64,000 bases of DNA from an uncultured Lachnospiraceae bacterium. GTDB lineage: Bacteria > Bacillota > Clostridia > Oscillospirales > CAG-272. The stretch is taken from contig CAZBAR010000004.1 of the NCBI GenBank assembly GCA_964490165.1, positions 12,917 through 76,916 on the forward strand. Reading direction: 5' to 3'. The translations under genes and the position numbers were made by a program. Below are positions 1-63,261 of this stretch, in pieces. The notes beneath the pieces were generated by a model that ran no database searches, was not told where the DNA came from, and saw only the letters and a list, made by a program, of their open reading frames with translations. Numbering within the stretch: the first letter of the stretch is position 1; each line of letters begins with the position of its first letter.

Positions 1-376
1 ATCTTTCTTCTCCCCATGGCTCCGTTGTATCTACGCTGAACAAAATTTCATAGCTTTCCGGCGGTGTTTCGGAATACAGGCTGAATATTTTATCTAACAT
101 CATATTGGTACGCTCCTTTCGTGCGTATACGATATTTTTTATGGTTTCGTGTGACAGATAATACTCCTTCGCAAGATCGTCTATAGATCTTCCCGCTGCA
201 AAGGCACGCCGCAAAGCGGAGTTTCTGTCGTCGATATTTCGGCGCATTCCGGTGCGCTCTCCCCACGGGCGGCGGGTACTGGAGCACGGCACGTAGATAA
301 GCTTTCCGGCGGCGTATTTTTCCACCTCGGCGTAAAGCTGGGGCGGGAGAACATTCTTTGCGTTTTCGTATTTCAT
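1..376 (-). CDS. small HTH DNA-binding protein, CD3324/Mor-like; C-terminus runs off the window edge
   Basis: Hand translation from ATG at 376 gives MKYENAKNVLPPQLYAEVEKYAAGKLIYVPCSSTRRPWGERTGMRRNIDDRNSALRRAFAAGRSIDDLAKEYYLSHETIKNIVYARKE..., open to position 1. It is absent from the ORF track because no stop is reached. The N-terminal motif resembles clostridial CD3324-family proteins. Confidence 0.5.
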   Translation of the reverse strand, partial: MKYENAKNVLPPQLYAEVEKYAAGKLIYVPCSSTRRPWGERTGMRRNIDDRNSALRRAFAAGRSIDDLAKEYYLSHETIKNIVYARKERTNMMLDKIFSLYSETPPESYEILFSVDTTEPWGEER

Positions 377-517
377 AATCGTATCACATCTTTCTGTGGT
401 TTATTTAGCGGATCCATCTGCGCAGACGGTGCAGACCTTTGTCTGTGATATCAGTATAGCATAAAAGGTTAGGGATTAATATAATTAAAACTTATAAATA
501 AATTCTCAGTAAAGAAA

Positions 518-535
518 CCCCCGCCGAAGCGGGGG
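518..535 (-). terminator. intrinsic terminator downstream of paralog 1
   Basis: Hairpin CCCCCGC-cgaa-GCGGGGG. On the minus strand it is followed by TTTCTTT. It lies 75 nt after the stop at 611. Confidence 0.6.
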
Positions 536-610
536 TGGATGAAAAAACGGCAATTGGCCGCGAGCCTTGAATAAGGCGCGGACCATCTGTTGTGCCGCCT
601 TTTCGCTTGT

Positions 611-3073
611 TTAATAATTGATAGTATAAGAACCGAACGCTATTTCTGTGGGCTCGGGAGTGCCGTCCTTTATTTCAGGTACTCTTTCTCCGGTAAGGAA
701 GAAGTTGTTTATTATGTCTCTGCTGCTCGCATTATAAGAGACCTTGGAGCCGCTTACAATACGGTAGACCTGTATAATAGGCGCCTGGTCAAAGGTTATA
801 GTTTCAGGAATTGAGAATACACCGGCATTGTCATACGGTCTGATGCCTTTTTCCTTAACATAGTTCCACATTGCGGTGCAGCGCTCCTCGTACAGCGCCT
901 TTGTCTCGGCGGTCGCTTTTTCGCCCGCGTAAACATCATTGTATACATAGGAGAGTCCGAGAAAATCAAAGAGATAAATTATTGTTTCAAGTCTTGCCTT
1001 GTACTCGGGCTTGTCAGCCAGCTCAAGCGCGGTGGTAAGAAGCGTTCTCATCTCCTCATAATGTGCTCTCATATAGTTGGGAGAGTACATATCGGCAGGC
1101 TTGTCAAAGTTTGAGATAAAGCAGGTTCCGCAGGTCTTAGCAGCCTCGTTCTGCATCAGGATGTACTGGAACAGCTGTTCATAGCCGTCGCCGTAGTACA
1201 TATAAAGGTATTCCTTCATATAGTCGCAGTACTGATCGAAGGTCATTTGGGGTTCCCACATCATCTTCATTACCAGATATGCCTTCAGTGTACCGAAGTT
1301 GTAGGTTCCGCCGCCGCCCTCGTAATAGATACCGCGAACATTAGCCTCGTTGTAAAGGAACTGAACATCGTAGTAGAGGTTGAGGATGTTAGGCATACCT
1401 ACCATCTGATAGCCGTACTGAACGCCGTAGTACCAGTACCACATTTCAGCACCGGTCTCTTTGCACAGCTCACCCCATGCGATAAGGGATGCATTCGTTT
1501 TAACGTTATTTTCCTTTTTATCGGGTCTCTGTCCCATGCAGGTTCCGCAGTCATCAGTGCCGAGATAGTGGTTGTTACAGCCCTGACCGCAGTAGAATAC
1601 GATAACGTTTTTGTCGGGCTTTACTGTTTTGGGTATATCATGGTTGTAGAGGATGCAGTGCACGCGCAAGCCGGCGTATTTTCCGTTGTCATATGTCTGA
1701 AGGTCTCTTGCAGCGCGGTTTGCGAGGTCGATATACAGACCGGAGGCACCCTCGCTTGCTGCCTTAACTCTGCACTTTGAGCAGGTGCAGTAGCTTTCAT
1801 TGTCGCACAGTGAGAAAGATATTGTCTTCTGACCTTCTTCAACGTATTTTCTTGCTCTGCCTGTAAAATCGTAGCAGGCAGAGCGCCATCCGTCACACAG
1901 CATATTGATAGTATCTATCATACCGTTATAAAGGTTTTTATAGCTTGATTCGGAGGAAGCGCAGGGCTGCCAGTTTAATGGATCAAGCTTGGGATCGGCA
2001 TTCCACTTTTCACGGCCCTCTGCAAGCTTTGCCGCATATTTGTCACTCAGGGGCATATTTTCATCAGTGGGCATTGTACCGAGGCTCATCTGCCAGTAAT
2101 AGTCATAGGAATGAGCATTGATGAACTGAGGACCGTAAAGGGTACCGAACTGTGCAGAATCGTTAGTATATATCTGTGTTCCGTTCATTCTTGAAGGGAG
2201 GTAGTATACCTGTGCGTTGTCTCCTTTGACGGTTTCTCCGCAGAATCTGAAGGTCATGGCAGGGATAACGATATCGGTATCAAGACCTTCAGGAATGTCC
2301 ACGGTTCTTGACTTGTAGATAAATGTGTGGTCGTTGTCATAGAAGCGGTAGCCGAGATAATCTTCAAGTATCTCGTAGATAGCGTACATATTACCTCTGT
2401 AGGTACCGTAAACATAAAGGCTGCCGTTTTCTACCTTGTACTGATATCCCTCAACGCCAAGCTCCGCACCGAAATTGTATTTTTTAAGTTCAGCTTCGGT
2501 AAGCTCATCTCGCTTGTCGGGATCTACCTCGGAGATTCTGGGGATCGAATTGAAGACGATCGCGTTACCCTCAGGCTCGCCGGTCTTGACCTCAAGATCA
2601 ACGCCTGTAGCAACTCTTATGTACTTTCTTGCGATCTCAGCCGCATAGGTAGCATTGTTGTTGCTTCCTTCGGGCTCGGGTGCATAAATGGTGAAGTTGG
2701 AAATATCAACACCGCCGATGGTAAGCTTTGCAACCTGATGGTTGTCGCCCAGCTCATCTGTCGTAATGGAATCTACCATAACGGCCTTGAGGTAAAATGA
2801 GTCCTTGGAGTTGATAACACCGTCGGCTGCAAGGTCAGCAGCTTCTGAGTTTACCGCTTCCTCAACACCCTCGCGGCCCAGAATGTAGCTCTTGATAAGA
2901 TTTGAGTCCTTCATATCGATCTCGCCGTCGCCGTTGAGGTCGCCCAGAGTGAAGGTGTCGTCATAGTCGAAATTCTGATTTGCTTCCAGCTTTGCCGCGC
3001 TTGAGACAACACTCAAGCTGCCGATCAGCATGAGCAGTGCAAGGCTGATAGATAACAGTCGTTTCATTTTCAT
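611..3073 (-). CDS. secreted N-terminal-dockerin / DUF4838-like (putative glycoside hydrolase-like) protein, paralog 1
   Basis: 820-aa ORF with a signal peptide (KRLLSISLALLMLIGSLSVVSSA). Duplicated dockerin Ca-loops DLNGDGEIDMKD and DLAADGVINSKD. Then a GH20b-like segment (EGYQYKVENGSLYVYGTYRGNMYAIYEILEDYLGYRFY) and a DUF4838-type CxCxxC motif (CDNESYCTCSKCR). The true start may be the second ATG at 3067. Confidence 0.85.
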   Translation of the reverse strand: MKMKRLLSISLALLMLIGSLSVVSSAAKLEANQNFDYDDTFTLGDLNGDGEIDMKDSNLIKSYILGREGVEEAVNSEAADLAADGVINSKDSFYLKAVMVDSITTDELGDNHQVAKLTIGGVDISNFTIYAPEPEGSNNNATYAAEIARKYIRVATGVDLEVKTGEPEGNAIVFNSIPRISEVDPDKRDELTEAELKKYNFGAELGVEGYQYKVENGSLYVYGTYRGNMYAIYEILEDYLGYRFYDNDHTFIYKSRTVDIPEGLDTDIVIPAMTFRFCGETVKGDNAQVYYLPSRMNGTQIYTNDSAQFGTLYGPQFINAHSYDYYWQMSLGTMPTDENMPLSDKYAAKLAEGREKWNADPKLDPLNWQPCASSESSYKNLYNGMIDTINMLCDGWRSACYDFTGRARKYVEEGQKTISFSLCDNESYCTCSKCRVKAASEGASGLYIDLANRAARDLQTYDNGKYAGLRVHCILYNHDIPKTVKPDKNVIVFYCGQGCNNHYLGTDDCGTCMGQRPDKKENNVKTNASLIAWGELCKETGAEMWYWYYGVQYGYQMVGMPNILNLYYDVQFLYNEANVRGIYYEGGGGTYNFGTLKAYLVMKMMWEPQMTFDQYCDYMKEYLYMYYGDGYEQLFQYILMQNEAAKTCGTCFISNFDKPADMYSPNYMRAHYEEMRTLLTTALELADKPEYKARLETIIYLFDFLGLSYVYNDVYAGEKATAETKALYEERCTAMWNYVKEKGIRPYDNAGVFSIPETITFDQAPIIQVYRIVSGSKVSYNASSRDIINNFFLTGERVPEIKDGTPEPTEIAFGSYTINY

Positions 3074-3240
3074 CTGTCCTTTGATAAGATTTTGATTGAA
3101 TTTTGCTTATATAGCAATTTAACATAATAATATCATATTGTAAATATAAATTCAAGGACTTTGTTTAATATGTTCAAACAGAGAACTATTTTTGTACATA
3201 ATAGTTATATAAATTGTCTTGCTTTTGGTTAAAACATAAA

Positions 3241-3268
3241 AGCAGGCGCTCCTCGGAGCGCCTGCTTC
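3241..3268 (-). terminator. intrinsic terminator downstream of paralog 2
   Basis: Hairpin AGCAGGCGCTCC-tcgg-(G)AGCGCCTGCT with an A-run on the plus side, which is a T-run on the minus strand. Confidence 0.7.
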
Positions 3269-3278
3269 AGTTTGTCTA

Positions 3279-5609
3279 TTAAATTCCGGGTTCTGTGCCG
3301 TTAAGGAAGAATTCGTTTATCACAGCACGGCGGCTTGCATCTGAATATACGTTTCCTTGTTTGTCAACTCCTCCGTATACCTGTACGATAGGGCAGATAT
3401 CAAAGTTGATAGTTGAGGGGAAGTAGTAATATCCGCTGTCGTCGAACGCATCAAAGTTCTTTGATCTTACGTAGTTCCACATCTCAGTATAGCGCTGCTC
3501 GTACAGTGCTCTGGTTTCCTCTGTGCCGTTTGTGTACCAGTCATGGTATACATAGGAGAGTCCAAGGAAGTCAAAGAGATAAAGCAAAGTCTTGAGACGG
3601 TCTATATGCTCAGGCTTTTCTGCCATATCAAGAGCGGTAGAAAGCAGTTTTCTCATTTCCTCGTAATTCGCTCTCATATAAGAGGGAGAGTACATATCAC
3701 CGGGACGGTCGAAGTTTGAGATAAAGCAGGTTCCGCAGGACTTTCCGGCGTCGTTCTGCATCAGGATGTACTGGAACAGCTGCTCATAGCCGTCACCGTA
3801 GTACATATACAGATATTCCTTCATATAGTCGCAGTACTTGTCAAAGGACATTGTGGGCTCCCACATCATCTTCATTGCAAGATACTCTTTGAGCTTGCGG
3901 AAATTATACGAGCGTCCGCCGCTTTCGTAGTAGATACCGCGAACGTTAGCCTCGTTGTAGAGGAACTTAATATCGTAGTAGAAGTTGAGAATATTGGGCA
4001 TACCTACAAGCACATAGTGATATGTTACGCCGTAGTACCAGTACCACATTTCAGCGCCTGTCTCTTTGCACATTTCGCCCCATGCTTTAAGGGACTCGGT
4101 TGTAATAACGTTGTTTTCCTTGTTAAGCTGACCCATGCAGGTTCCGCAGTCATCAGTGCCGAGATAGTGGTTGTTACAGCCCTGACCGCAGTAGAATACG
4201 ATAAGGTTCTTGTCAGGTCTTACGGTTTTGGGAATAGCGTGGTTATAGAGAATGCAGTGTACGCGCAAGCCGGCGTATTTTCCGTTGTCATATGTCTGAA
4301 GGTCTCTTACAGCGCGGTTGGCGAGGTCGATATACAGACCGGAGGCACCCTCGCTTGCTGCCTTGACTCTGCACTTAGAACAGGTGCAATAGCTTTCGTT
4401 GTCACACAGGGAGAAGGATATAGACTTCTGACCGTATACAACCTTTTCTCTTTGAGTTGTGCGGAACTGATAGAAGTAGTGGTTCCAGCCCTCGTCTATC
4501 ATTCTGATAGTGTCTATCATACCTTCGAAAAGCTTTTTATAGCTTGACTCGGAGGTAGCGCAGGGCTGCCAGTTATATTCGTCAAGCTTAGGATCGGCAG
4601 CCCACTTTTTCTCACCGTCTGCAATCTTTGCGTTGTACCTATCGTTAAGTTTCATTGAGTCATCGTCGGGCATTGTGCCGAGGCTCATTCTCCAGTAGTA
4701 GCCGAATGAATGTGCATTGATGAACTGGGGACCGTACAAAGAGCCGTAGAAGTCTTCGGAATATCCGTTTACCTGAGTGCCGTTCATACGGGAGGGGAAG
4801 TAGTATACCTCTGCATTGCCGCCTCTTACTCCTCCGCAGTATCTGAATCTCATAGCAGGAATGAATATTTCGCGGTCAAGCCCTTCGGGGATGTCTACTG
4901 TTCTTGTCTTGTAGATAAAAGTATAATCGCTGTCATAGAAGCGGTAGCCGAGATAGTTTTCAAGTATCTCGTAGATAGCGTACATATTGCCTCTGTAAGT
5001 ACCGTAAATGTAAAGACTGCCGTTTTCTACCTTATAGGTGTAGCCCTCTTCGCCCAGCTCATCGCCGAAATCGGAAGCGCGGGGAACTGAATTGAAAACG
5101 ATAGCATGACCTTCAGGCTCGCCGGTCTTGATCTGAAGATCAACTCTGGTAGCAACTCTTATGTACTTTCTTGCAATCTCAGCTGCATAAGTAGCGTTGT
5201 TATCGTTGCTGCCCTCGGGTGTGGGTGCATAAATTGAAAACTCGGAAATATCAACGCCGCCGATAGTAAGCTTTGCGATCTGCTTGTTGTCGCCCAGCTC
5301 ATCGGTCGTGATGGATTCAACCATAACGGCTTTGAGGTAATATGAGTCCTTGGAGTTGATAACACCGTCGGCTGCAAGGTCAGCGGCGTCTGTGTTTATC
5401 GCGTCCTCAGCACCCTCGCGGCCTAAAATATAGCTTTTGAGCAGGTTTGAGTCCTTCATATCGATCTCGCCGTCGCCGTTGAGGTCGCCCAGATCGAAGG
5501 TGTCATCATAGTCAAGATGCTGATCAACGTTCAGCGCTGCACTTGATAAGGAGGAAAGGCTTCCCACCAGCATAACAAGTGCAAGACATACAGATAACAG
5601 TTTTTTCAT
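3279..5609 (-). CDS. secreted N-terminal-dockerin / DUF4838-like protein, paralog 2
   Basis: The ORF extends to 5645. The preferred start is ATG at 5609 (MKKLLSVCLALVML), preceded by AAAGGAC with 8-nt spacing. Architecture matches paralog 1. Confidence 0.85.
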   Translation of the reverse strand: MKKLLSVCLALVMLVGSLSSLSSAALNVDQHLDYDDTFDLGDLNGDGEIDMKDSNLLKSYILGREGAEDAINTDAADLAADGVINSKDSYYLKAVMVESITTDELGDNKQIAKLTIGGVDISEFSIYAPTPEGSNDNNATYAAEIARKYIRVATRVDLQIKTGEPEGHAIVFNSVPRASDFGDELGEEGYTYKVENGSLYIYGTYRGNMYAIYEILENYLGYRFYDSDYTFIYKTRTVDIPEGLDREIFIPAMRFRYCGGVRGGNAEVYYFPSRMNGTQVNGYSEDFYGSLYGPQFINAHSFGYYWRMSLGTMPDDDSMKLNDRYNAKIADGEKKWAADPKLDEYNWQPCATSESSYKKLFEGMIDTIRMIDEGWNHYFYQFRTTQREKVVYGQKSISFSLCDNESYCTCSKCRVKAASEGASGLYIDLANRAVRDLQTYDNGKYAGLRVHCILYNHAIPKTVRPDKNLIVFYCGQGCNNHYLGTDDCGTCMGQLNKENNVITTESLKAWGEMCKETGAEMWYWYYGVTYHYVLVGMPNILNFYYDIKFLYNEANVRGIYYESGGRSYNFRKLKEYLAMKMMWEPTMSFDKYCDYMKEYLYMYYGDGYEQLFQYILMQNDAGKSCGTCFISNFDRPGDMYSPSYMRANYEEMRKLLSTALDMAEKPEHIDRLKTLLYLFDFLGLSYVYHDWYTNGTEETRALYEQRYTEMWNYVRSKNFDAFDDSGYYYFPSTINFDICPIVQVYGGVDKQGNVYSDASRRAVINEFFLNGTEPGI

Positions 5610-5662
5610 TGTTATTTGTCCTTTCATTTTTTGCTTTTGCGACAATGCCGCACATTAACATA

Positions 5663-5691
5663 ATGATAACATAATGGTGTTTATTTTGCAA
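5663..5691 (-). promoter_or_regulatory. sigma-70-type promoter of paralog 2
   Basis: Minus strand reads TTGCAA-17 nt-TATCAT. An almost identical block precedes paralog 3. Confidence 0.5.
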
Positions 5692-5770
5692 TATATTTTT
5701 GTGTAAATCATTCAAAGTGTGAGGCAGAATAATATAGAGAGGTCAAAAATTTGATCTTGTATTATGGATA

Positions 5771-5797
5771 AAAAACCGCCCTTTTCGGACGGTTTTT
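5771..5797 (-). terminator. intrinsic terminator downstream of paralog 3
   Basis: AAAAACCGCCC-ttttc-GGACGGTTTTT, an imperfect stem flanked by an A-run and a T-run. Confidence 0.6.
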
Positions 5798-5807
5798 ATA
5801 GGTTAAA

Positions 5808-8141
5808 TCAAATTCCGGGCTCTGTGCCGTTAAGGAAGAATTCGTTTATTGCAGCACGGCGGCTCGCATCGGAGGTTACGTTTCCGTCTGAGTATACATG
5901 ACCGTAAACCTGTACGATAGGACAAATATCAAAGTTGATAGTTGAAGGGAAGTAATATACATTTTCCGAGCCAAACACATCAAAATTACCTGCCCTGATA
6001 TAGTTCCACATATCAGTGTAGCGCTGCTCGTACAAAGCTCTTGTCTCGTCAGTACCGTTTGTGTACCAGTCGTGGTATACATAGGAAAGGCCGAGAAAGT
6101 CGAAGAGATAAAGCAAAGTTTCAAGTCTTTCCTTGTACTCAGGCTTATCTGCAAGTTCAAGCGCTTCTACAAGAAGCTTTCTCATTTCCTCGTAATTTGC
6201 TCTCATATAAGAGGGAGAGTACATATCGCCGGGACGGTCGAAGTTTGAGATAAAGCAGGTTCCGCACTGCTTTGCGCATTCATCCTGCATTTGTATATAC
6301 TTGAATATCTGCTCATAGCCATCGCCGTAATACATATAGAGGTATTCCTTCATATAGTCGCAATACTGCTCGAAGGTCATTTTGGGCTCCCACATCATCT
6401 TCATAGCGAGATACTCTTTCAGCTTGCCCAAGTTGTAGGGGCGTCCGCCGCCATCGTAGTAGATACCGCGTACATTAGCCTCGTTGTAGAGGAACTGAAT
6501 ATCGTAGAAAAGATTGAAAACATTAGGCATACCTACAAGCACATAGTGATATGTTACGGCATAGTACCAGTACCACATCTCAGCGCCTGTCTCTTTGCAC
6601 ATTTCACCCCATGCTTTAAGGGATTCGGTTGTGATAACGTTGTTTTCCTTGTTAAGCTGACCCAGGCAGGTTCCGCAGTCGTCAGTGCCGAGACAATGGT
6701 TGTTACAGCCCTGACCGCAGTAGAATACGATAAGGTTCTTGTCAGGTCTTACGGTCTTGGGAATAGCGTGATTATAGAGAATGCAGTGAACGCGCATGCC
6801 CTTATAAATACCGTCGTTATATGTCTGAAGATCTCTTACAGCGCGGTTGGCGAGGTCGATATACAGACCGGAGGCACCCTCGTTTGCTGCCTTTCCTCTG
6901 CACTTTGAGCAGGTGCAATAGCTTTCGTTGTCGCACAGGGAGAAGGACATAGACTTCTGACCGTATTCAACTTTTTCTCTTTGAGTTGTGCGGAACTGAT
7001 AGAAGGGGTGCTCCCATCCCTCGTCTATCATTCTGATAGTGTCTATCATACCTTCGAAAAGCTTTTTGTAGCTTGACTCGGAGGAAGCGCAGGGCTGCCA
7101 GTTATATGGATCGAGCTTTGGGTCTGCAGCCCATTTTTTCTGACCGTCTGCAAGCTTTGCCGCATATTTGTCACCCAGCTTCATGTCTTCATCAGTGGGC
7201 ATTGAGCCGAGGCTCATCTGCCAGTAAAAGTCATAGGAATGTGCATTCAAAAACTGAGGACCGTACAAAGAGCCGTAGACGTCTTCGGAATATCCGTTTA
7301 CCTGAGTTCCGTTCATTCTTGAGGGGAAGTAGTATACCTGTGCATTCTGACCTGCAACAAAGTCACCGCAGAATCTGAATCTCATGGCAGGGATAAATAT
7401 TTCGCGTTCAAGTCCTTCGGGGATGTCCACGATTCTTGTCTTGTAGATAAAAGTGTAATCGCTGTCATAGAAGCGGAAGCCGAGATAATCTTCGAGTATC
7501 TCGTAGATAGCGTACATATTGCCTCTGTAGGTACCGTAAATATAGAGGCTGCCGTTTTCTACCTTATAGGTATAACCTTCTTCGCCCAGCTCATCGCCGA
7601 AATCGGAAGCGCGGGGGATAGAGTTGAATACGATCGCATTCCCTGTCGGCTCTCCTGTTGTGATCTGAAGATCAACGCCTGTAGCAACTTTTATGTAATT
7701 TTTCGCGATCTCAGCTGCATAAGTAGCGTTGTTATTGAAGCTGTTCTCGGGTGTGGGTGCATAAATGGTGAAGTTTGAAATATCAACGCCGCCGATAGTA
7801 AGCTTTGCAACCTGATGGTTGTCGCCAAGCTCGTCGGTCGTGATAGATTCAACCATAACGGCTTTGAGGTAATATGAGTCTTTGGAGTTGATAACACCGT
7901 CAGCTGCAAGGTCTGCGGCTTCTGAGTTTATCGCGTCCTCAACACCCTCGCGTCCTAAAATATAGCTCTTGATCAGGTTTGAGTCCTTCATATCGATCTC
8001 GCCGTCGCCGTCGAGGTCGCCTAAAGTGAAGGTATCGTCATAATCAATATGCTGATTAGCGTTCAGCGCTGCGCTTGATAAGGTGGAGAGGCTTCCTATC
8101 AGCATAACAAGCGCAAGACATACAGATAACAGTTTTTTCAT
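5808..8141 (-). CDS. secreted N-terminal-dockerin / DUF4838-like protein, paralog 3
   Basis: The ORF extends to 8171. The preferred start is ATG at 8141 (MKKLLSVCLALVML). Same domain order and Cys motifs as the other paralogs. Confidence 0.85.
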   Translation of the reverse strand: MKKLLSVCLALVMLIGSLSTLSSAALNANQHIDYDDTFTLGDLDGDGEIDMKDSNLIKSYILGREGVEDAINSEAADLAADGVINSKDSYYLKAVMVESITTDELGDNHQVAKLTIGGVDISNFTIYAPTPENSFNNNATYAAEIAKNYIKVATGVDLQITTGEPTGNAIVFNSIPRASDFGDELGEEGYTYKVENGSLYIYGTYRGNMYAIYEILEDYLGFRFYDSDYTFIYKTRIVDIPEGLEREIFIPAMRFRFCGDFVAGQNAQVYYFPSRMNGTQVNGYSEDVYGSLYGPQFLNAHSYDFYWQMSLGSMPTDEDMKLGDKYAAKLADGQKKWAADPKLDPYNWQPCASSESSYKKLFEGMIDTIRMIDEGWEHPFYQFRTTQREKVEYGQKSMSFSLCDNESYCTCSKCRGKAANEGASGLYIDLANRAVRDLQTYNDGIYKGMRVHCILYNHAIPKTVRPDKNLIVFYCGQGCNNHCLGTDDCGTCLGQLNKENNVITTESLKAWGEMCKETGAEMWYWYYAVTYHYVLVGMPNVFNLFYDIQFLYNEANVRGIYYDGGGRPYNLGKLKEYLAMKMMWEPKMTFEQYCDYMKEYLYMYYGDGYEQIFKYIQMQDECAKQCGTCFISNFDRPGDMYSPSYMRANYEEMRKLLVEALELADKPEYKERLETLLYLFDFLGLSYVYHDWYTNGTDETRALYEQRYTDMWNYIRAGNFDVFGSENVYYFPSTINFDICPIVQVYGHVYSDGNVTSDASRRAAINEFFLNGTEPGI

Positions 8142-8188
8142 TGTTATTTGTCCTTTCGTTTTTTGCGGCAATGCCGCACATTAGCATA

Positions 8189-8217
8189 ATGATAACATAA
8201 TGATGTCTGTTTTGCAA
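8189..8217 (-). promoter_or_regulatory. sigma-70-type promoter of paralog 3
   Basis: Minus strand reads TTGCAA-17 nt-TATCAT. The block is near-identical to 5663..5691. Confidence 0.5.
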
Positions 8218-8263
8218 TATATTTTTGTATAAATTATTCAAAATTTTGGTCTTGTATTACGGA

Positions 8264-8293
8264 TAAAAAACCGCCCTTTCGGGCGGTCTTTTT
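8264..8293 (-). terminator. intrinsic terminator downstream of paralog 4
   Basis: AAAAAACCGCCC-tttc-GGGCGGTcTTTTT. Confidence 0.7.
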
Positions 8294-8302
8294 AAGTGTA
8301 AA

Positions 8303-10633
8303 TTAAATTCCGGGTTCTGTGCCGTTAATGAAAAATTCGTTTATTGCAGCACGGCGGCTTGCATCTGAAGATATGTTTCCATGTTTGTCAACTTGACCGT
8401 AAACCTGTAAGATGGGACAAATATCAAAGTTTATTTCTTCAGGGAAGTAGTACACATTCTCGGCGTCAAACATATCAAAATCACCTGCGCTGATATAATT
8501 CCACATATCAGTGTAGCGCTGCTCATACAGTGCTCGTGTCTCCTCTGTGCCGTTTGTGTACCAGTCGTGGTATACATAGGAAAGGCCGAGGAAGTCGAAG
8601 AGATAAAGCAGGGTGCTGACTCTCTCTATATGCTCAGGCTTTTCTGCCAGCTCAAGTGCCTTTGCAAGAAGAGTTCTCATTTCATCATAATGTGCTCTCA
8701 TATAAGAGGGAGAGTACATATCACCGGGACGGTCAAAGTTTGAGATAAAGCAGGTTCCGCACTGCTTTGCGCATTCATCCTGCATTTGTATATACTTGAA
8801 TATCTGCTCGTAGCCGTCGCCGTAATACATATACAAATATTCCTTAAGGTGATCGCAGTATTTGTCAAAGGACATTGTGGGTTCCCACAGCATCTTCATA
8901 GCGAGATACTGCTTAAGATTGCGGAAGTTATAATCACGTCCGCCGCTTTCATAGTAGATACCCTTAACGCCTGCGTCATTATAAAGGAACTGAATGTCGT
9001 AGTAGAGATTGAGTATATTAGGCATTCCCACAAGCACATAGTGGTACATTACGGCGTATTCCCAGAACCACATTTCTGCGCCTGACTCTTCACAGATCTT
9101 GCTCCAGGTTTTAATTGATGTATTGGATTCAATATTGTTGCTGCCGTACTGACCAAAGCAGTTGCCGCAGTCCTCTGTTCCTAGGTGGTGATTGTTACAG
9201 CCCTGACCGCAGTATATAACTATCAGTCCCTCGTCAGGTCTTACGGTATCAGGTATCTGGTGATTGTAAAGGATAGTATGTACACGAAGATTTGCATATT
9301 TTCCGCCGTCATACTCACGCAGTGCCTTCATTGCACGGTTTGCAGCATCGATATACAGACCTGAATAGCCTTCTTTTGCTGCCTTGCCTCTGCATTTTGA
9401 ACAGGTGCAGTTGTTTCCGTTATCGCAGATCGAGAAGGATATTGATTTTTGACCGTAATCGACATACTCTTTAATGGTGGTTGTAAAGCTGTAGCCGGGC
9501 GAATGCCAAGCGTTTTCAAGCATATTAACGGTTTCCAGCATACCGTCAATAAGCTCGTTAAAGCTGGAGGTTGTGGACATACAGGGCTGCCAGACCAGAT
9601 TGGGATCTTTGGCATTTACTTTGATCTTTAGCTTTTCAAGACCGTTTTTAACCTTGTAGTCGTATTTTTGAGCCAGAGTCAGGCTGTCGTCATCGGGCCA
9701 GTCGCCGTTTTTCATTTCCCAGTAGTAGTCAAATGAATGTGCATTCAAAAACTGCGGACCGTACTCAGTGCCGTAGCGCTCCTCGTCCCAGCTGTATATT
9801 TGTGTGCCGTTCATTCTTGACGGGAAATACCATATCTGCGGATCGTCCTCGCATACATATCCGCAATACCTGAATTTCAGGGCAGGAATAAATATTTCCC
9901 GTTCAAATCCCTCAGGAATATCTACGGCTCTCTTTTTATATACAAATGTATGGGTGCTGTCATAGAAACGGAAGCCGAGATAATCTTCGAGTATCTCATA
10001 GATAGCGTACATATTGCCTCTGTATGTACCGTATACATACAAACTGCCGTTTTTTACCTTATAGGTATAGCCTTCTTCGCCCAGCTCATCGCCGAATTCG
10101 GAAGCGCGGGGAACAGAGTTGAATACGATCGCGTTGCCTGTCGGTTCACCGGTCGTGATCTGAAGATCAACGCCTGTAGCAACTCTTATATACTTTCTTG
10201 CAAGTTCTGCAGCATAAGTGGCGTTGTTATTGCTTCCCTCAGGTTCGGGTGCATAAATGGTGAAGTTTGAAATATCAACGCCGCCGATAGTAAGCTTTGC
10301 GACCTGATGGTTGTCGCCAAGCTCATCAGAAGTAATATCGCCTACTAAAAGAGCTTTGAGATAGAAAGAATCTTTAGAATTGATAACACTGTCCGCCGCG
10401 AGATCGGCAGCGTCTGTAATTACCTTTTCTTCAATGTCTGTTCTGCCCAAAATATAGCTTTTCATAAGGCTTGAATCCTTCAGGTCTACCTTGCCGTCGC
10501 CGTCAAGGTCGCCTAAAGTGAAGGTGTCATCATAGTCAAGATGCTGATTCAGATTCAGCGCTGCGCTTGAAACTGTGACGAGACTTCCCAGCAGCATAAA
10601 AAGTGAAAGACCTACAGATAACAGTTTTTTCAT
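8303..10633 (-). CDS. secreted N-terminal-dockerin / DUF4838-like protein, paralog 4 (most divergent)
   Basis: 776 aa. Signal peptide, dockerin loops DLDGDGKVDLKD and DLAADSVINSKD, and the same body and Cys clusters (CDNGNNCTCSKCR; CGQGCNNHHLGTEDCGNC). Confidence 0.85.
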   Translation of the reverse strand: MKKLLSVGLSLFMLLGSLVTVSSAALNLNQHLDYDDTFTLGDLDGDGKVDLKDSSLMKSYILGRTDIEEKVITDAADLAADSVINSKDSFYLKALLVGDITSDELGDNHQVAKLTIGGVDISNFTIYAPEPEGSNNNATYAAELARKYIRVATGVDLQITTGEPTGNAIVFNSVPRASEFGDELGEEGYTYKVKNGSLYVYGTYRGNMYAIYEILEDYLGFRFYDSTHTFVYKKRAVDIPEGFEREIFIPALKFRYCGYVCEDDPQIWYFPSRMNGTQIYSWDEERYGTEYGPQFLNAHSFDYYWEMKNGDWPDDDSLTLAQKYDYKVKNGLEKLKIKVNAKDPNLVWQPCMSTTSSFNELIDGMLETVNMLENAWHSPGYSFTTTIKEYVDYGQKSISFSICDNGNNCTCSKCRGKAAKEGYSGLYIDAANRAMKALREYDGGKYANLRVHTILYNHQIPDTVRPDEGLIVIYCGQGCNNHHLGTEDCGNCFGQYGSNNIESNTSIKTWSKICEESGAEMWFWEYAVMYHYVLVGMPNILNLYYDIQFLYNDAGVKGIYYESGGRDYNFRNLKQYLAMKMLWEPTMSFDKYCDHLKEYLYMYYGDGYEQIFKYIQMQDECAKQCGTCFISNFDRPGDMYSPSYMRAHYDEMRTLLAKALELAEKPEHIERVSTLLYLFDFLGLSYVYHDWYTNGTEETRALYEQRYTDMWNYISAGDFDMFDAENVYYFPEEINFDICPILQVYGQVDKHGNISSDASRRAAINEFFINGTEPGI

Positions 10634-10744
10634 AATTGTTTATCCTTTCTTATTTTTTGGCAATGCGCCATACTTCAAAACAATAATAACATAAATGCAA
10701 GCCGCTTTCAATATGATTTTGTGTAAAATATTAAAAAATTTGCT

Positions 10745-10830
10745 ATTGTGGGAATGTACTTGGTCAGTAACATGCAAGCTGCGAAATTCTTTTTGTGCAG
10801 TTTGCTGTTTCTGCGGACTTTTTCTACAAC
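10745..10830 (+). repeat. partial copy (right end) of intergenic repeat family A
   Basis: TGGTCAG..GCGAAATTCTTTTTGTGCAGTTTGCTGTTTCTGCGGACTTTTTCTACAAC aligns with the right ~70 nt of the full copy at 53495..53719. Confidence 0.6.
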
Positions 10831-10831
10831 T

Positions 10832-10860
10832 AAAAAACCGCCCCTTGCAGGCGGTTTTTT
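10832..10860. terminator. bidirectional intrinsic terminator (serves the E1 gene)
   Basis: AAAAAACCGCC-ccttgca-GGCGGTTTTTT, 12 nt beyond the stop at 10872. Confidence 0.7.
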
Positions 10861-10871
10861 ATAGTTATTTA

Positions 10872-13358
10872 TTACAGACCTTTTTTGCTTCTTTCGATAT
10901 GCTCAAGCTCTGATTCGTTTACGGTGCATACTCTGCCGGGCAGGGGCATCAGCTTCTGGCTGATAACATCGATAATGCCGTCAGCCTGCGGGAAGAAGTA
11001 TTTCTCAAACTCAAACGCGGGAGTGATCCAGTTGCGTGAGCCGAATACTACCGGCGGAGCGTCAAGATAGTCAAACGCCATCTCGGTGATGTTGGACGCC
11101 ATGTCTCTCATAATGCTTCCGCGGTCGCACGCATCTCCTACGATCACTATCTTGCCTGTTTTCTTAACGCTCTCAATAACCTTTTCGTAGTTGAAGGGAA
11201 CGATAGAGCGTGCGTCGATGATCTCAGCAGATACGCCGTATTCTTTTTCCAGCTTATCAGCCGCTTCCATAGCGCGGTACAGAACTGCGCCGATAGTGAG
11301 GATAGTTACATCTTTACCCTCGCGTTTAACGTCAGGCTCGCCGAAAGGCACTTCGTAGCTCTCTGCGGGTACTCCGCCCTTGTGGAACTCCTCGCCCTTG
11401 TCGTAAATGCGCTGGCTCTCAAAGAAGATAACGGGGTCAGTGCCGTTAAGGGCAGCTGCCATAAGTCCCTTTGCGTCGTAAGGCGTTGCAGGGAAGCATA
11501 CCTTCAGACCGGGAATGTGTGAGCAGAGTGCCGTCCAGTCCTGGCTGTGCTGTGCGCCGTACTTTGAGCCGACAGATACTCTGACAACTACAGGCATTTT
11601 CAGAATTCCTGCAGACATAGACTGCCACTTGGAGAGCTGGTTGAATATTTCATCGCCTGCGCAGCCGATAAAGTCGGCGTACATAAGCTCAACGATAGCG
11701 CGGCCGCCTGCCATAGCATAGCCGACGGAGGAGCCTACGATAGCAGCCTCGGATATGGGCGCGTTGAAGAAACGGTGATAGGGAAGCGCCTCGGTCAGAC
11801 CGCGGTAAACAGCGAATGCTCCGCCCCAGTCACGGTTGTCCTCACCGTATGCGATAAGTGTGGGATCTTCGTAGAATTTATCGTAGATAGCCTCAAAAAG
11901 ACCGTCGCGCACGCCGTACTGCTTGATCTTCGGCAGGGGCTTGCCGGATTCGTCAAACGCCCAGCGGCTCCTCTGTGCAAGCTGTTTTACTCTGGGGTTG
12001 TCTTCCTTAGGTGCGAGAACCTCAGGCTCACGCTCGGTATCCATTGAAGGAACATGGTTGTTTGAGAACATGATAGAAGATATCATGTCGGGGGTCTTGT
12101 CAAGGTCCATTCTGGGAGATATTTCAAGATCGGTAGCAAGAGCGCAGATCTTTGTAACTCTCTTTATAATGCTCTCCTCGATAGCTGCAAATTCCTCATC
12201 GGTTGCAATGCCGCCCTCAACCATCTTTTTACGGTATGCGGCGATGGGGCAGGAATTCTGCCATTCCTCGATCTCTTCAACGCTTCTGTAGGTGGAGGAG
12301 TCGGAAGGGGAGTGTCCGCTGACACGGTATGTGGCAACTTCAAGCAGTGCGGGACCCTTGCCGTTTACAAGCAAGTCCTTTTTGCGCTGTGTAGCATCGA
12401 TGACCGCAAGAGGATCGTAGCCGTTGACCTTTTCTGCATGGAGCATTTCGGGGTTGAAGCCTGCGCCGAGTCTCGCTGCAACGTCCCAGCCCATGGTCTC
12501 GCCCTTTGTCTGACCGCCCATGCCGTAGAAGTTGTTAAATATATTAAAGAGTATGGGCATTCCGCCGTCATCGTACTTGCCGTCCATGCCCCACAGCTTT
12601 GTGATCTGATCCATGGTGGACATATTGATAGCCTCAAGCACAGGTCCGCGACCCAGCGCGCCGTCGCCGGAGTTTGCAATAACGATGCCTTTCTTGTGAT
12701 TGCTTCTCTTATACAGAGCAGCGCCCAGTGCAACGGGAGCTGCGCCGCCGACTATTGCGTTGTTGGGGAATATACCGAAGGGAATGAAGAACGCGTGCAT
12801 GGAGCCGCCCAGACCTCTGTTAAAGCCTGTGGTGCGGGCAAATATCTCAGCCAGCGCGCCGTAAAGCAGGAAGTCTATGGCAAGATCCTTAACGTCGCCC
12901 TTTTTCTCCTGTCTTTCCTCGACGACCTTTAAGATGCTGCCGTCAAGAAACTCTTTCATAATATCGTAAAGCTCTGTGTCGTCAAGCTTGTAGATAGATG
13001 AAAGACCCTTTGCAAGAATTTCACCGTGGCTGCGGTGAGAGCCGAAAGTAAAGTCGTTTATATCAAGGCAGTATGCCTGACCGACAGCGCTTGCTTCCTG
13101 ACCTATTGAAAGGTGCGCGGGGCCGGGGTTGTTGTACTCAACGCCGTTGTATACGCTTTTTGTCTTGATCTCGTTGAGCATTGTCTCAAACTCGCGGATA
13201 ATGCGCATATCGCGGTAAATGCGGAGAAAATCGTCCTTAGTATAAAGCTTTTTCTCCTGCGCCAGTGTTTTATCGTACTGGCAAAGCGGAATTTTATCGA
13301 ATGAAAGATAGCCCTTTTCAAAAGCTTTTTCAGGGCTGATGTATTGACTCTTCGGCAT
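10872..13358 (-). CDS. 2-oxoacid dehydrogenase E1 component, fused alpha+beta subunits (TPP-dependent)
   Basis: 828 aa. The N-terminal half is E1-alpha-like (GQEA..GSHRSHGE..GGSMH..SGDGALG). The C-terminal half is E1-beta/transketolase-like (ISEAAIVGSSVGYAMAGGRAIVELMYADF..). Confidence 0.85.
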   Translation of the reverse strand: MPKSQYISPEKAFEKGYLSFDKIPLCQYDKTLAQEKKLYTKDDFLRIYRDMRIIREFETMLNEIKTKSVYNGVEYNNPGPAHLSIGQEASAVGQAYCLDINDFTFGSHRSHGEILAKGLSSIYKLDDTELYDIMKEFLDGSILKVVEERQEKKGDVKDLAIDFLLYGALAEIFARTTGFNRGLGGSMHAFFIPFGIFPNNAIVGGAAPVALGAALYKRSNHKKGIVIANSGDGALGRGPVLEAINMSTMDQITKLWGMDGKYDDGGMPILFNIFNNFYGMGGQTKGETMGWDVAARLGAGFNPEMLHAEKVNGYDPLAVIDATQRKKDLLVNGKGPALLEVATYRVSGHSPSDSSTYRSVEEIEEWQNSCPIAAYRKKMVEGGIATDEEFAAIEESIIKRVTKICALATDLEISPRMDLDKTPDMISSIMFSNNHVPSMDTEREPEVLAPKEDNPRVKQLAQRSRWAFDESGKPLPKIKQYGVRDGLFEAIYDKFYEDPTLIAYGEDNRDWGGAFAVYRGLTEALPYHRFFNAPISEAAIVGSSVGYAMAGGRAIVELMYADFIGCAGDEIFNQLSKWQSMSAGILKMPVVVRVSVGSKYGAQHSQDWTALCSHIPGLKVCFPATPYDAKGLMAAALNGTDPVIFFESQRIYDKGEEFHKGGVPAESYEVPFGEPDVKREGKDVTILTIGAVLYRAMEAADKLEKEYGVSAEIIDARSIVPFNYEKVIESVKKTGKIVIVGDACDRGSIMRDMASNITEMAFDYLDAPPVVFGSRNWITPAFEFEKYFFPQADGIIDVISQKLMPLPGRVCTVNESELEHIERSKKGL

Positions 13359-32128: not shown

Positions 32129-32163
32129 AATGATCTCCATTCCGCCGTCCTGCGGCGGTATAA

Positions 32164-32465
32164 GTCGAAAAGTCGAAAAAAACAGCAAGCAGGATTGAGT
32201 TTTTGCCGTTTTTTATTGTTCTGCTGCTTATATTTATCTTTTTCGACAGCCTGAATTATTATAATTGAGTTTGTCGAAAAACCTAACGGTTTTTTCGACA
32301 GAAAGTTCCGTGCGCTCGCGCCGTCGCGCCTCGAAGCTACGCTTCTCGACACTCGCAGAACTGCAAGGTGTGGGCTGGCGGCGGTGTATGTCCGCCTTGC
32401 CCACGGATTTTTATTTGTAATTGTTTACGCATTCATTTTTGTAATACTCATTACTTTTCCGACAG
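32164..32465. repeat. cluster of GTCGAAAAA / TTTTTCGACAG inverted-repeat motifs (family-A end-like) between aroB and aroA
   Basis: Motif copies occur at 32164, 32172, 32239 (inverted), 32272 and 32290 (inverted). Degenerate copies occur at 32342 and 32455. The pair 32272/32290 forms an 11-bp hairpin. Confidence 0.6.
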
Positions 32466-45018: not shown

Positions 45019-45094
45019 TGGCAGGGGCACAAAGATTCGAACTCTGGACACGCGGTTTTGGAGACCGCTGCTCTACCAGCTGAGCTATACCCCT
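45019..45094 (-). tRNA. trnW: tRNA-Trp (anticodon CCA), CCA-3' encoded
   Basis: AGGGGTATAGCTCAGCTGGTAGAGCAGCGGTCTCCAAAACCGCGTGTCCAGAGTTCGAATCTTTGTGCCCCTGCCA. The cloverleaf was folded by hand: 7-bp acceptor stem, GCTC/GAGC D stem, GCGGT/ACCGC anticodon stem, TTCGAAT T-loop. Confidence 0.9.
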
Positions 45095-51715: not shown

Positions 51716-52000
51716 AGGCCATACACCCGAAGATCGGGAAAGCGTCGCACACGACGCCGTGTCAACTGCTCAGGGCAGGCGACCCTGCGGCACATCAGCT
51801 AAACTGCTTAATGCTGCTTGGTTCCCCACCTGACATGGTTCACAGCCGCTGATTGCGCTGGAACCCGCCCATCAACACAGTTGAACACGGCACAGACTGT
51901 ACAAAGCAAACCCTCAAAACGGGAATACCACCCCTGCATACAGCGGATTTCAGGTACAGGAGGCCGCTGAACTCCCGGCTGGTATGACCTTACCCTGCGG
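51716..52000 (-). ncRNA. ffs: signal recognition particle RNA, large Bacillus-type with Alu domain (ends approximate)
   Basis: The minus strand contains the domain IV core CATGTCAGGTGGGGAACCAAGCAGCATTAAGCAG and the Alu-domain-like GGGAGTTCAGCGGCCTCCTGTACCTGAAATCCGCTGTATGCAGGGG. The 5' CCGCAGGGTAAGGTCATAC pairs with the 3' GTATGGCCTTTCCCTACGG. It sits upstream of dnaX, as in B. subtilis. Confidence 0.85.
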
Positions 52001-52108: not shown

Positions 52109-52390
52109 AACTTTCTTTTTCGTACCAAAAAGAAAGTTACAAAGAAAAGGGTATCCAAGAGGGAGGTATCCCTCTTGGAAAACTCCCTCTGACTTCCCTG
52201 CGGGAAGTATACGTTAGTATCAATCAAACGATATTGGGGCCATTGACCACTAACGCTCTGCTGTAAATCTCGTTATGCTTCCTCCGGAAGCTATAAGGAA
52301 AGTGGGATTTTCAAGGGAGAAAACGCAGTTGTCTCCCTTGAATGATTTTCTTTCGAGCTTTCTTTTTTCACAAAAAGAAAGCGACAAAAA
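52109..52390 (+). repeat. intergenic multi-hairpin repeat family B, copy 1 (longest)
   Basis: Bounded by hairpins CTTTCTTTTT-cgtacc-AAAAAGAAAG and CTTTCTTTTTT-cac-AAAAAGAAAG. Alignable with 57889..58096 and, inverted, with 55436..55560. Confidence 0.7.
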
Positions 52391-53469: not shown

Positions 53470-53494
53470 AGTCGGGAAGCTTTGCTTCCCGGCT
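53470..53494 (+). other. hpf terminator hairpin, copy 1 (separated from its T-tract by the repeat insertion)
   Basis: AGTCGGGAAGC-tttg-CTTCCCGGCT is identical to 53720..53744 but is followed by CAGTCTGTCG rather than a T-run. Confidence 0.7.
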
Positions 53495-53719
53495 CAGTCT
53501 GTCGAAAAACTAAATGGCAGTAGCAAAATAACTAAAAGTTTTGGTCAAGCTTTTTCAAAAGCTTGCGGATTTTTAAGGCAGAGCCTTAAATCGCGCTCCG
53601 CAGAGCGCGAAATTCCTATGACTTCACGGAGTCCAGAGGGTTACCTCTGGTCGCGGCTCGCAAGCCGCGAAATCCCTTTTGTGAAGTTTGCTATTTCTGC
53701 GGACTTTTTCGACAACCTC
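53495..53719 (+). repeat. intergenic multi-hairpin repeat family A, full copy 1
   Basis: Ends CTGTCGAAAAA (53499) and TTTTTCGACAA (53705). Five internal hairpins at 53546-65, 53573-89, 53592-609, 53633-50 and 53653-68. Alignable over its full length with the inverted copy at 62987..63211. Confidence 0.75.
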
Positions 53720-53750
53720 AGTCGGGAAGCTTTGCTTCCCGGCTTTTTAA
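53720..53750 (+). terminator. hpf terminator hairpin, copy 2, with T-tract
   Basis: AGTCGGGAAGC-tttg-CTTCCCGGCT followed by TTTTAA. Confidence 0.7.
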
Positions 53751-57888: not shown

Positions 57889-58096
57889 AACTTTCTTTTG
57901 CTACCCAAAAGAAAGTTACAAAGAAAAGGGTATCCAAGAGGGAAGAATCCCTCTTGGAAAACTCCCTCTTACTTCCCTGCGGGAAGTACACCTTAGTTTC
58001 AAGCAAACAATATTGAGGCTATTGACCACTAACGATTTGCTGTAAACTTCGTAATGCATTCTCAGAAAGCAAAAAGAAAGCGTAAAATTAACTTCT
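57889..58096 (+). repeat. intergenic multi-hairpin repeat family B, copy 2 (internally deleted relative to copy 1)
   Basis: AACTTTCTTTTGCTACCCAAAAGAAAGTTACAAAGAAAAGGGTATCCAAGAGGGAAGAATCCCTCTTGGAAAACTCCCTCTTACTTCCCTGCGGGAAGT... is collinear with 52109..52390. Confidence 0.7.
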
Positions 58097-62819: not shown

Positions 62820-62986
62820 CGATCATTTCCGTCCTTTTCTGTCGGGGTGTCCCGACGGAATAAATAATTTTCTACAATTAAATATTTTACCATAAATCTC
62901 TTGTATTTGTATAGACAAATAATTAAATTTTCAAGATTTTCACTAAAAAGCAGAAAAAAGAGTGTACAGCATACGCTGCACACTCT

Positions 62987-63211
62987 CAAACTGTCGAAAA
63001 AGTCCACAGAAATAGCAAAATGCACAAAAGGGATTTCGCTCTCTGAGGAGAGCGACCAGAGGTTCCCTCTGGACTCCGGTGCGGCTTAGGCTTTTCGCCC
63101 TCTGCGGAGGGCGATTTAGGGCGTTGCCCTAAAAACCCACAAGCTTTTGAAAAAGCTTGACCAAAACTTTTAGTCATTTTGCTACAGACATTTAGTTTTT
63201 CGACAGTCTGT
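62987..63211 (-). repeat. intergenic multi-hairpin repeat family A, full copy 2 (inverted relative to copy 1)
   Basis: Ends CTGTCGAAAAA (62991) and TTTTTCGACAG (63196). The reverse complement aligns end to end with 53495..53719. Flanked by hairpins at 62959..62986 and 63212..63235. Confidence 0.75.
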
Positions 63212-63261
63212 AGAGAGCTGCATATGCAGCTCTCTATTCAATCTGTTGACAAAGCTAAATA

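Follow-up and report, generated by a model that had tools for sequence, protein, structure and literature searches.

A 224-bp hairpin-filled element downstream of polC is probably a non-autonomous IS1182-type transposon targeting terminator hairpins

The window analysed here, a 64,000-nt stretch of DNA, contains two full copies and one truncated copy of a hairpin-rich sequence that we call family A, the parts and flanks of which are collected in Table 1. Copy 1 lies downstream of hpf and copy 2 downstream of polC, whose 3′ end was recognised by its match to NF001688 (positions 1202–1444 of 1445), and both copies are in sense orientation. Copy 1 sits between two perfect 25-bp copies of one hairpin, with a T-run after the second of them only, which is the signature of an insertion that has duplicated a whole terminator hairpin. 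The hairpins around copy 2 are as previously described, the one on the polC side (63212–63235) lacking a T-run and the one on the far side (62959–62986) running into TTTTTT in terminator-like fashion; they differ from each other, and no target duplication was detected (flank repeat score <12). The check proposed in the original prediction, whether the flanking hairpins of each locus are diverged duplicates, gave a perfect repeat (25/25) for copy 1 and two different hairpins for copy 2. Downstream of hpf and polC, the hairpins at 53720–53744 and 62987–62958 have the features of intrinsic terminators, and the latter, taken together with its TTTTTT (62953–62986), is likely the working terminator of polC. 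Exact-protein look-ups with hpf and the ABC ATPase recovered no empty site, because the only other contigs of the organism break at the element. The truncated third copy retains the right end of family A and directly abuts the terminator hairpin AAAAAACCGCCCCTTGCAGGCGGTTTTTT.

Table 1 Coordinates of family A copies, their hairpins and their flanks in the window.
Feature	Position	Strand	Basis
Family A copy 1, complete element, ends CAGTCTGTCGAAAAA and TTTTTCGACAACCTC	53495..53719	+	Alignment to copy 2
Left copy of duplicated target hairpin of copy 1, AGTCGGGAAGCTTTGCTTCCCGGCT	53470..53494	+	Perfect 25/25 direct repeat
Right copy of duplicated target hairpin of copy 1, then TTTTT; hpf terminator	53720..53744	+	25/25 repeat; terminator-like
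Family A copy 2, complete 224-bp non-autonomous element (putative MITE)	62987..63210	-	Alignment to copy 1; IS1182-family ends
Hairpin on polC side of copy 2, no T-run, AGAGAGCTGC-atat-GCAGCTCTCT	63212..63235	-	
Left terminal inverted repeat of copy 2, CAGACTGTCGAAAAA	63196..63210	-	Same 15-nt end as full-length IS (L168, L245-L261)
Interior module in copy 2: AAAGTTTTGGTC, hairpin 1, GTGG, hairpin 2, start of hairpin 3	63102..63173	-	Covariance-model match, 77.4 bits
Hairpin 1 of copy 2, palindrome CAAGCTTTTTCAAAAGCTTG	63140..63159	-	Covaries across metagenome module copies
Hairpin 2 of copy 2, TTTAGGGC-aac-GCCCTAAA	63115..63133	-	One compensated pair versus copy 1
Hairpin 3 of copy 2, TCGCCCTC-cgca-GAGGGCGA	63095..63114	-	One compensated pair versus copy 1
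Hairpin 4 of copy 2, CCAGAGG-gaa-CCTCTGG	63056..63072	-	Stem same in both copies
Hairpin 5 of copy 2, TCGCTCTC-ctca-GAGAGCGA	63036..63055	-	Four adjacent pairs replaced versus copy 1
Right terminal inverted repeat of copy 2, TTTTTCGACAGTTTG (reverse complement CAAACTGTCGAAAAA)	62987..63001	-	
Hairpin and TTTTTT on far side of copy 2	62953..62986	-	Terminator-like site 62987-62958
Truncated third copy, last 56 nt of family A	10774..10829	+	89% identical to copy 1 positions 162-217

Elsewhere in the window, positions 1–10700 hold four tandem repeat units of ~2.5 kb that are 60–92% identical (families D1–D11); these are probably paralogous genes in an array. Another hairpin-rich repeat family, unrelated in sequence to family A, is present in two copies that are ~87% identical (52117–52300 and 57896–58079), with the stems CCAAGAGGGA..TCCCTCTTGG and ACTTCCC-tgc-GGGAAGT. 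Rfam models placed a bacterial large SRP RNA (158.8 bits) at 51719–51987 and a tRNA at 45022–45094, both on the minus strand.

The reverse complement of 62987–63211 aligned with 53495–53719 from end to end, as the original prediction had claimed, with 39 differences in 226 columns. Copy 2 is filled by five hairpins and has no transposase gene. All three paired stem changes that had been reported are present: TTAAGGC/GCCTTAA in copy 1 corresponds to TTAGGGC/GCCCTAA in copy 2, CGCGCTC/GAGCGCG to CGCCCTC/GAGGGCG, and, in hairpin 5, GCGGCT-cgca-AGCCGC to GCTCTC-ctca-GAGAGC, where four adjacent pairs have changed, with GAAATCCC following directly after this last hairpin in both copies. In a joint fold of the two copies, 13 of the differences fell in paired columns and no pair was broken; twelve of them make up six pairs in which both sides changed and pairing was kept (four in hairpin 5 and a single one each in hairpins 2 and 3), and the thirteenth is a one-sided change from A-U to G-U. 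Random placement of 13 substitutions left every pair intact in 0 of 200,000 trials, and the pair-preserving changes are not an artefact of alignment, an error that had been named beforehand as a possible source of the stem differences. Compared with shuffled sequence, the two copies folded with z-scores of −11.0 and −13.4.

Additionally, both family A copies are bounded by 15-nt inverted repeats, starting with CAG-N-CTGTCGAAAAA and ending with its reverse complement, and with up to one mismatch allowed the window contains 11 occurrences of CTGTCGAAAAA, where 1.8 are expected. These terminal repeats, the 25-bp hairpin repeat around copy 1 and the truncated third copy were absent from the original prediction. 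A cluster of short pieces with CTGTCGAAAAA ends also lies at 32160–32465, upstream of an EPSP synthase gene, and includes a bare end-to-end inverted-repeat pair, TTGTCGAAAAACCTAACGGTTTTTTCGACAG, at 32271–32301; a back-to-back end hairpin at one side is present in many other families with CTGTCGAAAAA ends.

By scanning one genome per species for two such ends spaced 180–210 nt apart, we found elements of ~200 bp at no fewer than 117 loci, mostly in Oscillospiraceae, with Pseudoflavonifractor, Flavonifractor, Dysosmobacter, Agathobaculum, Intestinimonas and Sporobacter as hosts among the matches listed. Their interiors are unrelated to family A and make up, among the same listed matches, families with 42, 14, 11 or fewer members. 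A direct repeat in the flanks scored at least 15 in 72 of the 114 elements listed, where mismatched flanks reach a maximum of 12, and 37% of the small elements among these matches lack a target duplication. The duplicated repeat is always a complete hairpin of 20–38 bp that starts exactly 4 nt outside CTGTCG, which places the true element end at CAG-N-CTGTCGAAAAA. Within the 42-copy family, a T-run and/or A-run is present at 32 of 36 targets, identifying these as intrinsic terminators; strict sense orientation found no support in this family, whose members lie 12 versus 7 relative to the terminator T-run, with 13 ambiguous.

The duplicated target hairpins at individual loci show several kinds of divergence. 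Those flanking the elements at L059 3862–4075 and L053 2080–2284 differ only by an inverted loop, GCTTC versus GAAGC and AAAT versus ATTT respectively; those of L104 and L029 carry paired double changes in the stem, and those of L010, L045, L049 and L097 carry uncompensated stem changes.

Full-length partners of these elements were sought with IS1182-family queries obtained via ISKpn6 and IS1272, the IS1272 transposase being taken from a staphylococcal plasmid. Against the ORFs of the collected loci, the latter gave a single match, in L168, directly downstream of a CAGACTGTCGAAAAAGTCC end. This locus came from a scan of viral contigs for the 15-nt end, in which most matches were due to chance, and it holds a full-length IS of ~1.6 kb with the left end CAGACTGTCGAAAAAGTCC, a 496-aa ORF and the matching right end GGGGTTTTTCTACGGTCTG. 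The ORF scored 407.7 bits against NF033551 (IS1182 family; cut-off 270, model positions 8–488 of 488) and matched DUF772, DDE_Tnp_1 and DDE_Tnp_1_6 in Pfam; its relatives number 7151 at E ≤ 1e-30, of which the DNA around two was fetched. In the fetched DNA, every full-length IS has a left end of the form CAG[CT]CTGTCGAAAAAGTCC and a right end of the form GGGTTTCTCGACAG[GA]C[TA]G; over the full-length IS as a whole, the two ends are CAG[ACT]CTGTCGAAAAAGTCC and CAG[CT]CTGTCGAGAAACCC. The ends of copy 2 (CAGACTGTCGAAAAA and CAAACTGTCGAAAAA) match these, as the terminal repeats of a MITE match those of its partner IS. A match to a known IS family was among the outcomes that the original prediction had itself set against its reading, and the idea of an RNA gene specific to this locus is not upheld, since the element has IS1182-family terminal repeats and a whole-hairpin target duplication.

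The full-length IS themselves show perfect whole-hairpin duplications of 25–40 bp at four of ten sites (L247/L248, L252, L255 and L259), and the other sites, about half, have two different flanking hairpins. L246 and L247/L248 contain identical full-length IS and have the right flank, hairpin and downstream gene, in common, while their left flanks are different; this indicates rearrangement by recombination between IS copies. Recombination between copies is thus a possible explanation for the unmatched hairpins around copy 2. All of these partners come from metagenome and viral-collection contigs without a host assignment. Neither the window, the 64 kb of this genome covered here, nor any other contig of the organism yielded a full-length IS; two IS1182-family transposases used as phmmer queries gave no match in the window, and no full-length IS was present among the at least 117 genome loci, where we inspected paired ends 0.6–4 kb apart and orphan ends near long ORFs. 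Candidates raised in those loci, namely two MITEs flanking a MATE gene and the SLH, ODP and EPSP synthase proteins, were false leads.

The interior of family A has a distribution of its own. It contains a module with the consensus order AAAGTTTTGGTC, hairpin 1, GCGG and variable hairpins, and a covariance model of this module matched only the two full family A copies in the window. Scanning metagenome contigs with the 21-nt family A core AAGTTTTGGTCAAGCTTTTTC recovered at least 120 loci, and CTGTCGAAAAA ends were in register at 0 of the 94 unique full-context core instances among the matches listed. The 5′ boundary of the module is sharp, with (A)AAGTTTTGGTC followed by hairpin 1, CAAGCTTTT-tc-AAAAGCTTG, and then [CT]GG; hairpin 2 is variable with a conserved GGC-aga-GCC tip and is often followed by TTTT, and many copies carry a hairpin TCGnnnnn-CGCA-nnnnnCGAAAT of the same type as family A hairpins 3 and 5. 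Besides lone copies there are tandem copies, inverted doublets whose spacer is 16 nt, copies that follow variable terminator hairpins, and dense arrays. The idea that all of them are hidden MITEs was rejected: among the matches listed, a flanking direct repeat is present at 8 of 78 instances, and an IS1182-type end lies near 2 of 55 copies on the left and 4 of 55 on the right. The module is found inside related MITEs with variant ends (L112, L300, L302, L362 and L370), two of which, L112 and L370, have the same ends as family A together with the module. The interior of family A is a widespread hairpin array that does not derive from a transposase gene and that in other Clostridia mostly occurs without these ends.

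Several further features of the module loci were observed. The contig of L324 (QZMK01001573.1, positions 1–12225) carries no fewer than 11 AAAGTTTTGGTC modules within 12 kb, some in each orientation; its first 7 kb contain almost no long ORFs, and a 1.39-kb unit with a convergent module pair is itself duplicated. Outward-facing inverted doublets of two module variants with the 16-nt spacer, seen in L284 (400–550), L285, L295, L307 and L309, form an imperfect palindrome of ~135 nt, in which hairpin 1 of the partner arm is CCACTTTT-ca-AAGTGG. In many contigs (L265, L273, L274, L283, L294, L296, L301 and L312), a conserved stretch, ..CACGTATTGG[CT]TGGGTGG..TACCTCGCGG.., lies ~100 nt upstream of the module, and a related stretch is found a few hundred nucleotides downstream of the module in L267, a locus with a selenocysteine tRNA at 5587–5679; the stretch may belong to some conserved element, tRNA-like or otherwise.

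Rfam searches of both family A copies returned nothing relevant, whether at the gathering score or with E ≤ 10, and gave no match at the gathering score for the module in 18 metagenome loci. Module sequence strings gave no relevant match in the searchable literature. When ORFs lying up to 1.2 kb from 130 module copies were clustered, across 654 kb of metagenome loci, no recurrent transposase-like family emerged; for Y1 transposases this was only a crude test.

This distribution raises the alternative that the module is a REP/BIME- or REPIN-like repeat mobilised by its own enzyme, such as a RAYT-type Y1 transposase, and that family A is a cluster of it later flanked by IS1182-type ends. The arrangement as singlets, inverted doublets, tandem copies and arrays, the sharp 5′ boundary with covarying hairpins, and the scarcity of IS1182-type ends near the listed copies all point in that direction. 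Nonetheless, no protein family recurrently adjoins the module in the 654 kb of metagenome loci and the crude test identified no Y1 transposase, and we regard this alternative as rather improbable.

We next consider whether pairing in these hairpins is constrained. In a model alignment of ~135 unique module copies among the matches listed, at least nine variants of the hairpin 1 stem are fully compensated (for example CCACCTTTT/AAAAGGTGG, CAGCCTTTT/AAAAGGCTG and CGAGCCTTT/AAAGGCTCG), and about five have a broken pair. These pairs were counted by hand from the alignment because the automatic consensus structure chose an alternative pairing of AAGTTT with AAGCTT. In every module copy, as at 53536–53556 in the window, the 5′ segment AAGTTT could pair with AAGCTT, which forms the 5′ arm of hairpin 1, as an alternative to the palindromic hairpin, and both segments are nearly invariant. 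Module hairpin 2 occurs with dozens of distinct stems. In the 42-copy family, which is unrelated to family A and has the same ends, 13 of the 36 predicted pairs have changed in a compensatory way, and one stem is wholly replaced by an A+T-rich stem in two members. Compensation across the module copies and the 42-copy family shows that some constraint on hairpin formation is real; the family A hairpins are under structural constraint, at the level of DNA (single-stranded or cruciform) or of RNA. This constraint applies to the interior module wherever it is present, and between the two window copies it is seen as paired changes. The earlier proposal of a functional structured RNA or DNA is thus supported as regards the pair-preserving stems, in both the listed module copies and the 42-copy family, and not as regards a new RNA gene specific to the locus.

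It could be argued that the element or its module is mainly a functional structured RNA, for example a 3′-UTR stabiliser, a terminator or a small RNA, selected for RNA folding, with the inverted ends incidental. Strong folding (z-scores −11 and −13), compensatory changes in hairpins 1–5 across many copies, the TTTT that often follows module hairpin 2 and the position of both window copies in sense downstream of hpf and polC are consistent with such a role, as is the orientation of the gene upstream of the module, which among the matches listed runs the same way in 48 cases and the other way in 23. The same counts leave one third of the listed module copies in opposite orientation, however, and the sense orientation in a 3′ UTR noted in the original prediction, while true of both window copies, is weak as a general property (12 versus 7 and 48 versus 23). 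One-sided changes in hairpin 1 gave G-T or T-G four times and A-C or C-A five times, showing no strand-specific tolerance of G-U, and dense arrays such as the one in L324 resemble selfish repeats. With transposon ends and a target duplication on the element, and no match in Rfam even at E ≤ 10, a mainly RNA-based explanation appears unlikely.

Alternatively, the paired changes could be mutational in origin, arising by template switching or gene conversion in imperfect palindromes, through copying from arm to arm or import of a whole stem. The block of four adjacent pairs and a loop base in hairpin 5 looks like a single event, and the loop inversions (L059 and L053) and paired double changes (L104 and L029) between duplicated target hairpins, together with the lack of asymmetry between G-U and A-C in hairpin 1, are compatible with such a process. 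In contrast, the window yielded no donor for the hairpin 5 block, and the uncompensated target-hairpin changes in L010, L045, L049 and L097 imply that arm-to-arm correction is not general. The longest word shared by an interior and its own flanking hairpin averaged 6.31, identical to the value for the flanks of other copies (6.31), so that interiors are no closer to their own flanks than to others. Copying of interior stems from the element's own flanking hairpin had been prompted as an idea by GAGAGC/GCTCTC, which occurs in hairpin 5 and again in the flank of copy 2; it was rejected, since sharing a 6-mer is what chance alone would give. The same comparison lends no support to a rewriting of hairpins from their neighbours, one form of the cassette-rewriting mechanism suggested earlier. 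A mutational origin of the paired changes is accordingly, in our assessment, doubtful.

Taken together, we propose, with a probability of roughly 0.85, that family A copy 2 is a ~224-bp non-coding MITE moved in trans by an IS1182-family DDE transposase. Such a transposase would recognise the 15-nt inverted ends CAG-N-CTGTCGAAAAA and join the element at both feet of a DNA hairpin, in most cases that of an intrinsic terminator; once the staggered joints are repaired, a copy of the entire hairpin (20–40 bp) would lie on either side of the element. The inserted element would then be preceded by a hairpin copy that has lost its T-run and followed by one that retains it. With the T-run kept only by the downstream hairpin copy, family A is probably co-transcribed as part of the 3′ UTR. 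That family A itself has moved is suggested by its structure.

Parts of this mechanism have precedents. IS1272, a member of the IS1182 family, targets terminator hairpins by structure and removes them (PMC5678879, PMC4923244), and in a published model, pathway b, joining at the 5′ feet of a cruciform duplicates the whole stem-loop (PMC5678879). The full-length partners described here likewise encode an IS1182-family DDE enzyme, and hairpins or terminators are chosen by structure and not by sequence. Unlike IS1272, which deletes or replaces the hairpin with no duplication, the elements here duplicate the whole hairpin, as pathway b predicts; their ends are CAGNCTGTCGAAAAA as opposed to GAGTCTGGGACATAAA in IS1272, and the window element has no transposase gene. 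For the IS1182 family, ISfinder gives direct repeats of 0–60 bp.

Bacterial MITEs lie between genes and give rise to transcripts with stable stem-loop folds (PMC10969869). Like Correia/NEMIS, RUP, BOX, SPRITE and ERIC elements and the MITEs of Methanosarcina, the elements described here are short, non-coding, multi-copy and intergenic, with terminal repeats that match an IS. Their target duplication, however, is a whole terminator hairpin of 20–40 bp, compared to 2–9 bp in those MITEs, and the interior of family A is a widespread hairpin module in its own right rather than a deleted IS. The IS1182-derived MITEs of Methanosarcina have duplications of 0–4 bp (PMC3852290), and a 2024 review of prokaryotic MITEs mentions neither IS1182 nor hairpin duplication.

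The module resembles REP/BIME sequences and REPINs in having hairpins with conserved flanks and compensated stems, and in occurring in intergenic regions as singlets, inverted pairs and clusters. It differs in that ORF clustering revealed no RAYT-type enzyme nearby, in its unrelated sequence, and in being carried inside a transposon and not only targeted by one. REPs are landing sites for some IS, including IS1397 and IS110-family elements. Integron attC sites are also folded-hairpin recombination sites with conserved short ends and a freely varying paired stem, whereas the window element has no GTTRRRY / RYYYAAC core, integrase or cassette ORFs and has DDE-transposon ends.

What goes beyond a routine MITE assignment is the scale and cleanness of the whole-hairpin duplications, and an abundant, unexplained cargo module that is absent from Rfam. 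We tentatively raise the possibility that this module represents a class of structured repeat not described before and widespread in Clostridia of the gut and of fermenters, a functional counterpart of REP/BIME sequences or a small terminator-like RNA, whose hairpins would be kept by selection and which would spread partly inside hairpin-homing IS1182-type elements, the cargo thus creating landing sites for its carrier.

For annotation, these elements of ~200 bp in the 3′ UTRs of core genes such as hpf and polC can be mistaken for small RNA genes; they also break metagenome assemblies, and their ends together with the duplicated terminator permit them to be masked or counted. For the biology of RNA and repeats, an abundant and sharply bounded cargo module with compensated stems, absent from Rfam, is a candidate for covariation analysis and the study of RNA ends. 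For transposon biology, the elements provide several hundred natural insertions that fit IS1182-family joining at both feet of a terminator hairpin with duplication of the whole hairpin, an outcome drawn as a model before and, in the literature searched, undocumented at this scale.
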